Source of the DNA: Escherichia coli
GTDB lineage: Bacteria; Pseudomonadota; Gammaproteobacteria; Enterobacterales; Enterobacteriaceae
Assembly: GCF_041886205.1 (NCBI RefSeq)
Contig: NZ_CP169029.1
Reading direction: 5' to 3' (one strand)
DNA: 64,000 nt
Shown: piece by piece, positions 3,177 through 62,907 of the stretch
Layout: each line of letters begins with the position of its first letter
How positions within the stretch are numbered: position 1 is the stretch's first letter
The notes under the pieces: generated by a model
What the model was told of the DNA's origin: nothing
Seen by the model: only the letters and a program-made list of their open reading frames with translations
Database searches by the model: none
Position numbers and translations under genes: made by a program

Positions 3177-3377
3177 TTTTACAGTCGCCATAAGCCTTTC
3201 CTCTGTTAAACCGCCTTCTGTTTTCCGATCCGTGCTTTTTTTGCAGCTAATTCCATTTTTCTGCAAAATTCAATAATTATTCATGAACATCATCAATGAA
3301 ATTGTCATAAACTATTACCTGTAATTTTGGTTTTCCCGGCCAAAAATGGACAATAACCACCAGGAAAAGGAGACGGA

Positions 3378-5054
3378 ATGCATCACGCCACCCCGCTTAT
3401 CACCACCATTGTTGGCGGCCTTGTGCTCGCCTTTATCCTCGGCATGCTGGCCAATAAACTACGTATTTCTCCTCTGGTGGGATATCTGTTAGCGGGTGTG
3501 CTGGCAGGACCATTCACTCCGGGCTTTGTTGCCGATACCAAGCTTGCCCCGGAACTGGCTGAACTGGGCGTCATTCTGTTGATGTTTGGCGTCGGTTTGC
3601 ACTTTTCGCTGAAGGATTTGATGGCGGTAAAGGCCATCGCCATTCCCGGTGCGATCGCCCAGATAGCCGTGGCGACGCTGCTGGGTATGGCGCTCTCTGC
3701 CGTGCTGGGCTGGTCGTTAATGACCGGTATCGTGTTCGGTTTATGTCTTTCCACCGCCAGTACCGTGGTGTTACTGCGCGCACTTGAAGAACGGCAATTA
3801 ATTGACAGTCAGCGTGGGCAAATCGCCATCGGTTGGTTGATTGTGGAAGACCTGGTAATGGTTCTGACGCTGGTGTTGCTGCCCGCAGTGGCAGGAATGA
3901 TGGAACAGGGCGATGTGGGCTTTGCCACTCTTGCAGTCGATATGGGGATCACCATCGGCAAAGTGATCGCATTTATCGCCATTATGATGCTGGTAGGTCG
4001 CCGTCTGGTGCCGTGGATTATGGCACGCAGCGCGGCAACCGGTTCTCGCGAGCTGTTTACCCTGTCGGTGCTGGCGCTGGCGTTAGGGGTTGCCTTTGGT
4101 GCGGTAGAGCTGTTTGATGTCTCCTTTGCACTCGGTGCGTTCTTTGCCGGGATGGTACTGAACGAGTCTGAACTGAGTCACCGTGCCGCCCACGATACGC
4201 TGCCATTGCGCGACGCGTTTGCGGTGCTGTTTTTTGTCTCCGTCGGGATGTTGTTTGATCCGTTAATTCTGATTCAGCAACCGCTGGCAGTGCTGGCGAC
4301 GCTGGCGATTATTCTGTTTGGTAAGTCGTTAGCCGCATTTTTCCTGGTGCGACTGTTTGGTCACTCCCAACGTACGGCATTAACCATCGCCGCCAGCCTG
4401 GCGCAGATTGGTGAGTTCGCGTTTATCCTGGCGGGACTGGGAATGGCATTGAATTTACTGCCGCAGGCCGGACAAAACCTGGTACTGGCAGGGGCGATCC
4501 TGTCGATTATGCTCAACCCGGTACTGTTCGCACTACTGGAGAAATATCTGGCGAAGACCGAAACGCTGGAAGAGCAGACGCTGGAAGAGGCAATCGAAGA
4601 AGAGAAGCAGATCCCAGTGGATATTTGCAACCATGCGCTACTGGTGGGTTACGGTCGTGTAGGCAGCCTGCTGGGGGAGAAATTGCTCGCCTCTGATATT
4701 CCGCTGGTGGTGATTGAGACGTCACGAACCCGTGTTGATGAGCTGCGAGAGCGCGGGGTCCGCGCAGTATTGGGCAATGCGGCGAACGAAGAAATTATGC
4801 AACTGGCGCATCTGGAATGTGCAAAATGGCTGATCCTGACGATTCCCAACGGTTATGAAGCGGGTGAGATTGTGGCATCTGCCCGCGCGAAAAATCCGGA
4901 TATTGAGATTATTGCCCGCGCCCATTATGACGATGAAGTGGCGTATATCACCGAACGTGGTGCGAATCAGGTAGTGATGGGCGAGCGTGAAATCGCCCGT
5001 ACCATGCTGGAACTGCTGGAAACGCCACCGGCGGGTGAGGTGGTGACGGGGTAA
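3378..5054 (+). CDS. ybaL: CPA2-family cation:proton antiporter with C-terminal TrkA-N (NAD-binding) domain, KefC-like
   Basis: 558-aa ORF; N-terminal multi-TM domain, C-terminal GYGRVG Rossmann motif; matches YbaL length. Confidence 0.93.
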   Translation: MHHATPLITTIVGGLVLAFILGMLANKLRISPLVGYLLAGVLAGPFTPGFVADTKLAPELAELGVILLMFGVGLHFSLKDLMAVKAIAIPGAIAQIAVATLLGMALSAVLGWSLMTGIVFGLCLSTASTVVLLRALEERQLIDSQRGQIAIGWLIVEDLVMVLTLVLLPAVAGMMEQGDVGFATLAVDMGITIGKVIAFIAIMMLVGRRLVPWIMARSAATGSRELFTLSVLALALGVAFGAVELFDVSFALGAFFAGMVLNESELSHRAAHDTLPLRDAFAVLFFVSVGMLFDPLILIQQPLAVLATLAIILFGKSLAAFFLVRLFGHSQRTALTIAASLAQIGEFAFILAGLGMALNLLPQAGQNLVLAGAILSIMLNPVLFALLEKYLAKTETLEEQTLEEAIEEEKQIPVDICNHALLVGYGRVGSLLGEKLLASDIPLVVIETSRTRVDELRERGVRAVLGNAANEEIMQLAHLECAKWLILTIPNGYEAGEIVASARAKNPDIEIIARAHYDDEVAYITERGANQVVMGEREIARTMLELLETPPAGEVVTG

Positions 5055-60527: not shown

Positions 60528-60544
60528 ATTGTCTGAGATCAGAG

Positions 60545-60563
60545 ATACGGCTAATAACCGTAT
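60545..60563. promoter_or_regulatory. inverted repeat IR-A (ATACGG-N7-CCGTAT), candidate operator upstream of the antitoxin promoter -35
   Basis: Perfect 6-bp arms with 7-bp spacer read directly; same architecture as IR-B 55 bp downstream. Confidence 0.5.
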
Positions 60564-60566
60564 GTC

Positions 60567-60595
60567 TTGACAGAGTGAGCAGATGAACATAAATT
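60567..60595 (+). promoter_or_regulatory. candidate sigma-70 promoter of the antitoxin-toxin operon (-35 TTGACA, 17-bp spacer, -10 TAAATT)
   Basis: Consensus -35 hexamer at 60567-60572 and plausible -10 at 60590-60595, about 75 nt upstream of the antitoxin start. Confidence 0.5.
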
Positions 60596-60599
60596 AATC

Positions 60600-60618
60600 A
60601 TACGGTTGATAGCCGTAT
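60600..60618. promoter_or_regulatory. inverted repeat IR-B (ATACGG-N7-CCGTAT), candidate operator overlapping the predicted transcription start
   Basis: Perfect 6-bp arms with 7-bp spacer just downstream of the -10; contains the spurious ATG of the ORF-track frame at 60606. Confidence 0.5.
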
Positions 60619-60671
60619 TATGTATGAGATCGACTCCCTACGATTTCATTCAGTTAATCAAAGAGGTCATA

Positions 60672-60983
60672 ATGCCTGGAAAAACAGCCACTCTACCCGA
60701 TGTCGATAAAACGCTGAAAAATGCGCGGGTCGAACTCAAAACTAGTCCCGACGCCAAAAACAAACTTCGTGAAGCTGCGCAAGCCGTTGGGGTAGATTTA
60801 AGCGCTTTTATTTTGAGCGCTGCTATGGAACGCGCCGAAAGTGTGCTTGATAACCAACGTCGCCGTGAGCTTTCGAATCAAAGCTGGGAACTGATGAACC
60901 AACTCATCGCTGAACCTGCTCAACCGACGCTCGCCCTCAAGGCGTTAATGAAAAGGAAAAACAGCGATGGTCGACAAGCATGA
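60672..60983 (+). CDS. ribbon-helix-helix (DUF1778-like) antitoxin of a GNAT-type toxin-antitoxin pair
   Basis: 103-aa from MPGKTATLPDVDK, RBS AAAGAGG 6-7 nt upstream; RHH-like N-terminus (RVELKTSPDAKNKLREAAQAVGVDLSAFILSAAMERAESVL) resembling TacA/AtaR/KacA-type antitoxins; overlaps the toxin gene by 17 nt. Confidence 0.8.
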   Translation: MPGKTATLPDVDKTLKNARVELKTSPDAKNKLREAAQAVGVDLSAFILSAAMERAESVLDNQRRRELSNQSWELMNQLIAEPAQPTLALKALMKRKNSDGRQA

Positions 60984-61509
60984 AGAGATTACTCTGCCCA
61001 TAGTCCTCTCCTGTAATTATCAGTCTGATATTACTTATCCTGGGCAAAAACAGTTTGATTGCGGTAACCCTGTTATCGATAAATTTGTACGCGCATCGCT
61101 AAAGAAAAGTGTGCGTAATAGCGACTGTGCGGCTAAAGCACTTATTGACAGACAAAGTGGTGAACTGATCGGCATCTGTACTTTTACGGCATATTCGCTG
61201 GAAAAACAACGCGTTTCTGGCGTCCTTCAGGGTTCACAACCTTCAGAAATTGGTGTTGTCAGATTAGTCATGTTGGGGGTAGCACGGAAGTATCAAAAGC
61301 GGGGCTTTGGTCAGGACCTACTATGTGATTTTTTTGAACATGTAAAAATAATTCACCAGGCATTACCAATTAAAGGGGTTTATCTTGATGCTGACCCTGC
61401 CGCCATTAATTTTTATGCTCGTCTCGGCTTTGTTCAGCTTTCAGCGACACCAAATGCTTTTGGTGCTGTACCTATGTTTTTGGCGATTCAGCATATTCTC
61501 GCGGCTTAG
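60967..61509 (+). CDS. GNAT-family acetyltransferase toxin (TacT/AtaT/ItaT/KacT-like, probable aminoacyl-tRNA acetyltransferase)
   Basis: 180-aa ORF with acetyl-CoA-binding motif A (VRLVMLGVARKYQKRGFG), motif B (AINFYARLGF) and N-terminal FDCGNPVIDKFV typical of GNAT toxins; immediately downstream of and overlapping an RHH antitoxin. Confidence 0.85.
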   Translation: MVDKHEEITLPIVLSCNYQSDITYPGQKQFDCGNPVIDKFVRASLKKSVRNSDCAAKALIDRQSGELIGICTFTAYSLEKQRVSGVLQGSQPSEIGVVRLVMLGVARKYQKRGFGQDLLCDFFEHVKIIHQALPIKGVYLDADPAAINFYARLGFVQLSATPNAFGAVPMFLAIQHILAA

Positions 61510-61564
61510 ATTATTATCGCCACCCGCCAGGGCAAGTTTTGCCTCAGCCGGGGGCTGAGCAGCG

Positions 61565-62500
61565 TTACCACTTTTGTTCAATTGCCCCCGCTTTCAGCAA
61601 CTCCACATCCTTGCCGTTAATGGTTGCCGTTGCGGCAACGATTGTGGTCCTTACAGTTGCACAAGATTTTCGCTCAAATTCCGGTTTATAAAGAATAAGA
61701 GACGAATTACTGGTAAATGAACCAAATAGGTAATCAGTAAAGCTAATATTCAGCCGGTTTAAACCGAAAGGCGCGAAGCCAACCGTTTGGTTAATCTCCT
61801 TACCGGATGGGCGACGAATGCTGAATGTCACGCGAAGGTTGGCCACTTCGCCTAATTTATTGGTGGTGGCGAAGAGGCTATCCATGCAGGAAAAACCTTC
61901 ATCTAAAAAATTATCCCGCATCCCAGAACGGGTAACCGTGATCACGGGTAACGTATCGTCAACCGTTTTTCTGTCAATCATGTCTTTTCGACAAGTAGCC
62001 AGAAAGTCTTCCGGGCCACCATAAATGTGGACACCTTTATCAAGATATTCCTTCGCTTTCTTACAATCTACCTCAACATACTGACCATTGGCGTACATCA
62101 TGCCCAACCTGGACCATGCTAAATTCACACCGTATTGCGCGGCCTGATTAAATAGCGCATACGCTTTGGCATAATCCACCCGCACCTGCTCGCCGTCGTA
62201 GTAGATACTCCCCAGCGCTAACGGTGCTTCTCTGTCACCGTGTTTAGCGGCTAACTCGAACCATTTAATCGCTTCCTGAACATCAGGTTTGGTATCATAG
62301 CGAGGCTGATAATATTCCCAGCCTAACAGGCTCTGCGCGTCGGCACCCCCCGATTCAGCCATTTTATGCAGTGTATTTATAACATTGGGCGCAGGTTTAC
62401 CACCGTATATGCTGTCATACAATTCATGTGCTTTCTCGCTTGCCACCACGCCTGGTGAAACTATTAGCATTAAAGAAAATAGTATTCTTTTAGTTAACAT
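61565..62500 (-). CDS. secreted Sel1-like repeat (TPR-like) protein with uncharacterised C-terminal domain of about 150 aa
   Basis: 311-aa from MLTKRILFSLMLIVSPGVVASE (Sec signal peptide, AAAGG RBS upstream); about three Sel1-like repeats (e.g. AIKWFELAAKHGDREAPLALGSIYYDG, YAKAYALFNQAAQYGVNLAWSRLGMMYANGQ); C-terminal half not recognised; the ORF-track start at 62560 is probably over-extended. Confidence 0.8.
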   Translation of the reverse strand: MLTKRILFSLMLIVSPGVVASEKAHELYDSIYGGKPAPNVINTLHKMAESGGADAQSLLGWEYYQPRYDTKPDVQEAIKWFELAAKHGDREAPLALGSIYYDGEQVRVDYAKAYALFNQAAQYGVNLAWSRLGMMYANGQYVEVDCKKAKEYLDKGVHIYGGPEDFLATCRKDMIDRKTVDDTLPVITVTRSGMRDNFLDEGFSCMDSLFATTNKLGEVANLRVTFSIRRPSGKEINQTVGFAPFGLNRLNISFTDYLFGSFTSNSSLILYKPEFERKSCATVRTTIVAATATINGKDVELLKAGAIEQKW

Positions 62501-62907
62501 GTATACCTTTATGTTCTCTCTGTCATATATTTCCATAATAATTAACCACCAAACATCCATTTAATGAATAAATACAGTGCCATAAAGGCCCAAGTAATAA
62601 GCACACATTTAACCTGAAACATTATCATCGATGTCACCAAATCGTTTATTTAGTGAGATAAAAATAGCATGTTCGTAAGATAAAAAATGCACATAGCAAT
62701 CAAGAAATAATATTATTACTTTTGATGTAAAACTATTTAGCTTTAAGATTCATTTTTTTCAACATATAGAGCATTCATTTTATGAATGCAAAATAAACAT
62801 ACCTGACACACAAACTATTCTCCTCTGTAATATTTTCTCATTAACACTCTGTTTACCCAACATGCGCTCCGCACTACACTATGTGGGCATTTTTTTAAGG
62901 GGTGGTA

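Follow-up and report, generated by a model that had tools for sequence, protein, structure and literature searches.

The window, by which we mean the whole stretch of 64,000 nucleotides of Escherichia coli DNA that was analysed, carries a variable segment between cyoE and yajR. This segment holds a toxin-antitoxin (TA) pair, a gene whose putatively exported product we call the Sel1/IrmA-like protein, and an AT-rich spacer. The features are listed here with the evidence on which each was placed.

60528..62897, no strand assigned: variable 2.37-kb segment comprising itaR, itaT, the Sel1/IrmA-like gene and the AT-rich spacer (98 bp in K-12, from a blastn comparison of its yajR-cyoE region with the window)
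60669..61509, plus strand: neighbouring type II TA pair, itaR (60669-60980) and itaT (60967-61509) (7BYY match; DUF1778/TacA antitoxin annotation)
61565..62500, minus strand: Sel1/IrmA-like coding sequence, complete, 311 codons and a stop (RefSeq WP_001490882.1, ORF list, dN/dS, E. coli prevalence)
61568..61942, minus strand: predicted IrmA-like FnIII/Ig-type beta-sandwich, aa 187-311 (AF2 model, structure and profile comparisons)
61943..62035, minus strand: linker, aa 156-186, with a helix at 166-178 and the conserved C170 (AF2 secondary structure, family alignment)
62036..62344, minus strand: three Sel1 repeats, aa 53-155, in an alpha-solenoid with capping helices from about aa 22 (Pfam PF08238, PDB sequence matches, AF2 helices)
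62441..62500, minus strand: putative signal peptide, aa 1-20 (MLTKRILFSLMLIVSPGVVA), with a signal peptidase I cut predicted after VVA (sequence reading, same layout in homologues)
62506..62510, minus strand: AAAGG, Shine-Dalgarno-like, 5 nt 5' of the ATG at 62498-62500 (sequence reading)
62501..62907, no strand assigned: AT-rich divergent spacer between the Sel1/IrmA-like gene and yajR, 407 bp, 30.7% GC (GC count)

The genes flanking the variable segment are 98-99% identical to K-12, and the 2.6 kb around the Sel1/IrmA-like gene, at this site between cyoE and yajR, is 100% identical to strain 6EVA. The TA pair is ItaRT, its toxin matching PDB 7BYY over 180/180 residues (E 4e-118). Because itaT stops at 61509 and the Sel1/IrmA-like gene at 61565-61567, the two are convergent, as the first-pass annotation had described them, and they do occupy one variable location. 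Folding of the 55-bp spacer between the two stops is no better than that of shuffled sequences (z -1.24), giving no sign of a bidirectional terminator. On the other side of the gene, the spacer at 62501-62907 presumably holds the promoters of both yajR and the Sel1/IrmA-like gene; no consensus-like sigma-70 promoter for the latter was found on the minus strand of this upstream region.

The mechanical ORF list extends the reading frame to 62560 (61565..62560, 331 aa), whereas RefSeq, under the name 'tetratricopeptide repeat protein', starts it at the ATG at 62498-62500. We favor the 311-aa start because it is preceded by AAAGG, because homologues from other genera begin at the equivalent Met in the alignment, and because it yields a Sec-like N-terminus. 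This N-terminus reads as an n-region MLTKR, an h-region ILFSLMLIVSPGVV and a c-region VVA with the cut falling before SE; it lacks a lipobox cysteine, and aa 1-15 have low pLDDT in the AF2 model. The mature protein is predicted to be 32.5 kDa with a pI of 5.9. The position and length given for the gene in the first-pass annotation thus hold, and the Sec signal peptide proposed there is supported by the n/h/c layout and its conservation in homologues. The description of the gene as strongly AT-rich needs correction, since the ORF has 45.8% GC against 51.4% for the window and is only mildly AT-rich; the figure of 30.7% belongs to the spacer upstream.

The N-terminal half of the protein is a Sel1-like repeat (SLR) domain. 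Pfam PF08238 matches aa 53-89 (E 1.6e-6), 95-122 and 131-155, which agrees with the roughly three repeats counted on first reading, while NCBIfam gives sub-threshold repeat matches only. AF2 places helices at 40-49, 53-64, 74-86, 92-102, 110-122, 126-138 and 146-155, mostly with pLDDT >90, so that tandem repeats of ~36 aa coincide with paired antiparallel helices in a solenoid. EsiB (4bwr) is the best PDB sequence match (E 1.7e-40, aa 43-146), and all matches to SLR proteins in the PDB are confined to aa 26-170. In the family alignment C146, in the last Sel1 helix, and C170, in the linker helix, are both nearly invariant, from which we infer a C146-C170 disulfide joining the linker helix to the last Sel1 repeat.

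The C-terminal residues, about 150 in number, had been reported as impossible to assign to any family, and as far as direct searches go this stands: aa 156-311 have no Pfam match even at E<=10, and searches of the C-terminal domain against NCBIfam, PADLOC, PHROGs and the PDB, by sequence or profile, return nothing meaningful. Matches of the domain to hemocyanin and protein A were rejected as repeat-summed noise. Comparison of structures and profiles, in contrast, points to an IrmA-like sandwich. When aa 156-311 were compared by phmmer with 1.84 billion representative proteins, 26 matches were obtained, ~15 of them convincing and nearly all of them the C-termini of Sel1 proteins. Four cysteines are nearly invariant in this family (C146, C170, C205 and C280), and its alignment shows the conserved motifs LP, TNKLGEVANLRV, PFGLN and AATATINGK, the last three of them in the sandwich. 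AF2 models built with the family alignment are confident both for the full-length protein (pLDDT 86.2, pTM 0.83; solenoid to aa 155, linker helix 166-178, beta-sandwich 187-310) and for the C-terminal domain alone (pLDDT 83.4). In a Foldseek search of the PDB, two IrmA chains rank first and are the sole matches at E<=0.001 (1.2e-5); IrmA is the closest solved structure to the domain by two methods. The predicted domain is in other words an FnIII-like beta-sandwich of the IrmA type.

Whether this likeness reflects common descent was judged from sequence profiles. Aligning the domain family with the IrmA family by hhalign gives P=0.003 at a probability of 10%, and the score of 25.8 is not reached by any of 300 column-shuffled alignments (mean 12.3, sd 2.3, max 23.4). 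In this register C205 and C280 fall on both IrmA disulfide cysteines, and the motifs L-x-[VI]-T, K-x-x-G, FG and AT-x-x-x-NG are also aligned between the two families. At E<=0.001 the IrmA profile PF18673 matches 2 of 19 family members, the better of them at 6.4e-5, and at E<=0.1 the number rises to 6. The long paralogue P0021 is matched too (E=0.011), along positions 16-102 of the 109 in the model; neither the E. coli protein nor its isolated C-terminal domain matches it even at E<=10. An HMM of IrmA made from sequences that are >=56% identical is too insensitive to detect the Sel1/IrmA-like family. This sequence evidence for homology to PF18673 is weak but consistent, and we regard the C-terminal domain as a divergent IrmA-type FnIII-like sandwich that is probably, though not provably, homologous to the IrmA family. 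The domain may instead have converged on a common beta-sandwich: the hhalign probability is low, and IrmA is absent from the best 50 Foldseek matches in AFDB50. No characterised protein with homology over the full length was found.

The solved relative, IrmA (interleukin receptor mimic protein A; CFT073 c1275, PDB 5EK5, Pfam PF18673), is a UPEC vaccine candidate and shares just 15-17% identity with the C-terminal domain. It is a stand-alone protein of ~13 kDa from the agn43-yeeR-irmA operon of pathogenicity islands, and in CFT073 its gene lies downstream of agn43. The domain described here, in contrast, is fused behind Sel1 repeats and a linker helix that a disulfide would hold in place, is encoded at a core-chromosome site between cyoE and yajR, and has an insertion of ~18 residues (aa 250-270) relative to IrmA. 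IrmA has an unusual intradomain disulfide (Cys21-Cys80 of the mature protein), forms a strand-swapped dimer, occurs in culture supernatant and binds IL-2, IL-4 and IL-10 in vitro (PMC4807369). Proteins of the IrmA family are also found in Brenneria, Serratia and Photorhabdus.

For the Sel1 half the nearest comparison is EsiB (CFT073 c5321, PDB 4BWR), which binds secretory IgA. Both proteins are built from Sel1 repeats, and export of the Sel1/IrmA-like protein is predicted, but EsiB has ~11 repeats and no beta-sandwich where the Sel1/IrmA-like protein has three repeats and caps. The likeness is one of repeats and not of orthology. Other SLR comparators are the Helicobacter pylori cysteine-rich proteins 1klx and 1ouv and AlgK; Legionella LpnE/EnhC are further exported Sel1-like repeat proteins. 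On PAI-serX of CFT073, ~10 kb from irmA, the gene of a 378-aa SEL1-like repeat protein, hydrophobic in an N-terminal segment, precedes that of a hypothetical protein of 180 aa (L022 34724-36438). This pair was considered as a split version of the Sel1 and IrmA architecture and rejected, since inspection of the translations revealed no likeness to the C-terminal domain.

Within E. coli the gene is an intact but patchily distributed one. Of 5426 complete genomes, 1370 show any match to it, and in 1363 of these it is full length; roughly one complete genome in four thus carries it, and ~75% lack it. Carriers include the protein-production strain C43(DE3), O104:H4 and strains labelled ETEC and STEC, as well as commensal, animal, soil and water isolates. 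Compared with the C43(DE3) allele the dN/dS ratio is 0.20, and compared with an Escherichia sp. orthologue it is 0.23; the two halves of the protein do not differ much in this respect. The gene is under purifying selection and is not a chance ORF: a dN/dS of ~0.2 together with full length in nearly all matching genomes marks it as real, and it is not a pseudogene. The suggestion made on first reading, that its phylogenetic distribution be examined, yields an intact gene in E. coli and, as set out below, in other genera.

The allele in the window is rare, with >=99% identity in just 15 genomes. Most carriers have an allele that is ~97% identical and differs at 10 aa; nine of these changes affect the signal peptide or the Sel1 half, and one (E201K) the beta-sandwich. 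In ~20 complete E. coli genomes, HH97 among them, the cyoE-yajR spacer is in a third state, 1.17 kb long, unannotated, without itaRT and with a frameshifted, internally deleted remnant of the gene (83% nt identity over 386 nt; in HH97, L030, NZ_CP116409.1, at 3286-4459). Strain C5 has an IS3 insertion, and Shigella sonnei carries truncated forms.

Outside E. coli the family was surveyed by Foldseek against AFDB50 and by a scan of species-representative genomes with a tight alignment. The combination of Sel1 repeats and sandwich occurs in Escherichia (E. coli, the cryptic clades, E. albertii and E. fergusonii), Pseudocitrobacter, Salmonella enterica (27-33% identity, up to 617 aa), Pectobacterium spp., Affinibrenneria, Morganella and, as a single match, Achromobacter; the match in Proteus mirabilis is just a 144-aa uncharacterised fragment. 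Fusions of Sel1 repeats with an IrmA-like domain are thus a small family, mostly of Enterobacterales. At 390-617 aa, most relatives exceed the E. coli protein in length, with additional Sel1 repeats at the N-terminus. Long paralogues of 484-617 aa, from Pseudocitrobacter, Salmonella enterica, E. fergusonii, Pectobacterium, Affinibrenneria, Morganella and Achromobacter, share with the short form the last Sel1 repeats, the linker helix, the four cysteines and the beta-sandwich at 27-43% identity, but add ~180-300 N-terminal residues with more Sel1 repeats, and some stand in tandem with a short form beside cyoE. In such tandems a gene of 478-494 aa lies directly 5' of a 308-aa form with a gap of 21-22 bp, an operon-like arrangement (L010 4222-6654; L006 4542-6927). 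E. coli has the short form only, and no remnant of a long paralogue was found 5' of its gene. No family member has been characterised, and searches of a literature library for the gene or for a fusion of Sel1 with IrmA found nothing.

The genomic contexts of these homologues bear directly on the relationship between the gene and its TA neighbour. Several metagenome contigs were too short for such a comparison; the informative loci are as follows.

L010, Pseudocitrobacter MAG: cyoE, itaR, itaT, then the 308-aa short form, with a 494-aa long paralogue preceding it in tandem
L006, Enterobacteriaceae contig: itaR, a truncated itaT (79/180 aa), then a short and long pair beside yajR
L004 and L027, Enterobacteriaceae contigs: the long form alone beside cyoE, with no TA
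L009, Escherichia sp. MOD1-EC7003: yajR next to the short form, with a LysR fragment and an M20-type hydrolase where the TA would be
L003 and L011, Affinibrenneria, and L013, Pectobacterium: the homologue at another site, directly 3' of a DJ-1/PfpI-AraC (GlxA-type) regulator

In E. coli the whole 2.6-kb segment is present in 1367 genomes and the Sel1/IrmA-like gene in 1363, so the three genes travel together. Beyond the species this co-occurrence, which the first-pass annotation had proposed as a check, breaks down: other Enterobacteriaceae carry the gene without a TA, with a decayed one or with other cargo, and the two are not conserved in co-orientation, being convergent here. The association is therefore one of position, and a functional link, which had been left open at the outset, is unlikely. 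Nor does the gene look like recent cargo of the islet, a question that had also been left open; its remnant survives in ~20 genomes. The simplest reading is that it is an old resident of the cyoE-yajR spacer in Enterobacteriaceae, repeatedly lost, also by many E. coli lineages, where the TA and other cargo come and go.

Some further details of these loci may be noted. The intact itaR beside the truncated itaT (L006 6984-7547) is apparently a decaying TA with an orphan antitoxin. Outside the Enterobacteriaceae the only recurring neighbour is the GlxA-type regulator (L013 4057-5085; L003 5022-6068), which possibly regulates the Pectobacterium and Affinibrenneria homologues; across the loci compared, no conserved partner gene adjoins the Sel1/IrmA-like homologues. 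In Escherichia sp. MOD1-EC7003 the itaRT position is taken by a LysR-like fragment and a 315-aa M20/amidohydrolase-like ORF (L009 4194-5759). UniProt labels some copies of the Sel1/IrmA-like protein "putative zinc-dependent hydrolase", a label that we reject because the protein matches no hydrolase family or motif in Pfam or NCBIfam. Our guess is that it may stem from a neighbour such as this M20-like ORF.

We propose, with moderate confidence, that the gene product is a Sec-exported binding protein of two domains without catalytic activity, in which Sel1 repeats and an IrmA-like domain act together and independently of ItaRT. Hypothetically, the signal peptide would be cut after Ala20 to release a mature protein of ~32.5 kDa into the oxidising periplasm, and further release, by analogy with IrmA, is possible. 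Two disulfides would then form: one between C146 and C170, fastening the linker helix to the last Sel1 repeat, and one between C205 and C280, inside the beta-sandwich at the positions of IrmA Cys21-Cys80. The short Sel1 alpha-solenoid would serve as a scaffold for binding a protein or peptide, and the sandwich as a second binding surface, or perhaps as a dimerisation module like the strand swap of IrmA. Solenoid and sandwich together could in this way act as a bivalent clamp on a partner in the envelope or outside the cell. A role in binding and not in catalysis is proposed because no catalytic family was matched in Pfam, NCBIfam, PADLOC or PHROGs, no catalytic motif is apparent, and both domains are classic binding modules. 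As no conserved partner gene adjoins the homologues, the ligand is a guess. A host protein is attractive because EsiB and IrmA are the nearest precedents for each half; a conserved envelope partner or a general extracellular one is at least as likely, since the family and the IrmA family both occur in plant-associated or environmental Enterobacterales and since C43(DE3) carries the gene.

The most serious alternative, though we consider it rather unlikely, is that the protein is a host-interaction or immune-evasion factor, released from the cell to bind host immune proteins through its EsiB-like and IrmA-like modules. The best PDB match of each half, by sequence for the Sel1 repeats and by structure for the sandwich, is a protein of this kind, IrmA is found in supernatant and binds cytokines (PMC4807369), and ETEC, STEC and O104:H4 strains are among the carriers. 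However, the similarity to EsiB is generic to the repeat, and the gene also occurs in C43(DE3), a laboratory derivative of a B strain, and in commensals and isolates from animals, soil and water. The family also extends to plant-associated Pectobacterium and Affinibrenneria, as the IrmA family does to Brenneria, Serratia and Photorhabdus, and because both families reach plant-associated or environmental taxa, a ligand specific to mammals is unlikely as the ancestral function.

Sel1-repeat immunity proteins are known from Pseudomonas (Tli5b/PA5086-5088), and the gene could by extension encode an orphan of this kind, acting in the periplasm against an effector of a type VI or other inter-bacterial system. 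A putatively exported Sel1 protein at a variable spot would suit such a role, and the tandem paralogues of ~308 and 478-494 aa in Pseudocitrobacter and another Enterobacteriaceae contig are typical of immunity arrays. We nonetheless find this improbable: the window, like loci L003-L016 and L026-L027, has no effector, T6SS, Rhs or CDI gene beside it, neither PADLOC nor NCBIfam yields a relevant match, and the gene keeps a stable position under purifying selection across genera.

Slightly less probable still is that the gene is silent or decaying and without function in present E. coli. Its absence from most genomes, the remnant in ~20 of them, the IS3 insertion in C5 and the truncations in Shigella sonnei would all fit with decay, and an upstream region of 30.7% GC, a composition that is often H-NS-silenced, in which no sigma-70-like promoter was found on the minus strand, might indicate silence. 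Yet dN/dS is ~0.2 in both domains, nearly every matching E. coli genome has the gene at full length, and the cysteines and motifs are conserved across genera. These last two readings, like the one that follows, are less well supported than that of a binding protein.

That the gene is a functional third component or cargo of the ItaRT module is very improbable and largely refuted by the cross-genus contexts: its near-perfect co-occurrence with itaRT in E. coli and a distant GNAT toxin-like ORF near the Pectobacterium carotovorum homologue are outweighed by the convergent orientation, the different compartments that the proteins would occupy, the orthologues without an intact TA listed above, and the description of ItaRT in E. 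coli HS and BL21(DE3) as a self-contained two-gene module, in which the Sel1/IrmA-like gene is unmentioned (PMC6125619). The GNAT-like ORF in question (L013 8631-9083) encodes 150 aa with 24% identity to ItaT, lies ~2 kb from the homologue and is probably a coincidence of variable regions.

Both domain types were known before, and this is not a new system; what is undescribed is their fusion, the divergent IrmA-like branch and the gene itself. The assignment of an IrmA fold turns a hypothetical "TPR protein" into a two-module binder that can be tested, and the very small IrmA family gains a fused, chromosomal branch that crosses genera. It also raises the question of whether cytokine mimicry is the real function of the IrmA family. 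One could go further and hypothesize that the fusions are a previously unrecognised group of exported bivalent binders of Enterobacterales, of which stand-alone IrmA is a stripped-down, island-borne offshoot, a speculation that we think has a small chance of being right. If true, the function shared by the IrmA fold would be to bind a conserved ligand of the bacterial envelope or the environment, or to oligomerise by strand swapping, and not to mimic cytokine receptors, which would change how IrmA, as a vaccine candidate, is read. Because C43(DE3) carries the gene, the idea of a bivalent binder is testable in strains of the BL21 lineage. Setting the gene apart from ItaRT should in addition be useful for work on that module or on the cyoE-yajR variable site.

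A last observation concerns the yajR end of this site. At ~62850-62895, before the 10 bp that precede the yajR ATG, ~45 bp look homologous to K-12 but strongly diverged, roughly two-thirds identical by eye. This suggests that two old haplotypes of the yajR promoter region exist, and not that the segment was inserted recently.
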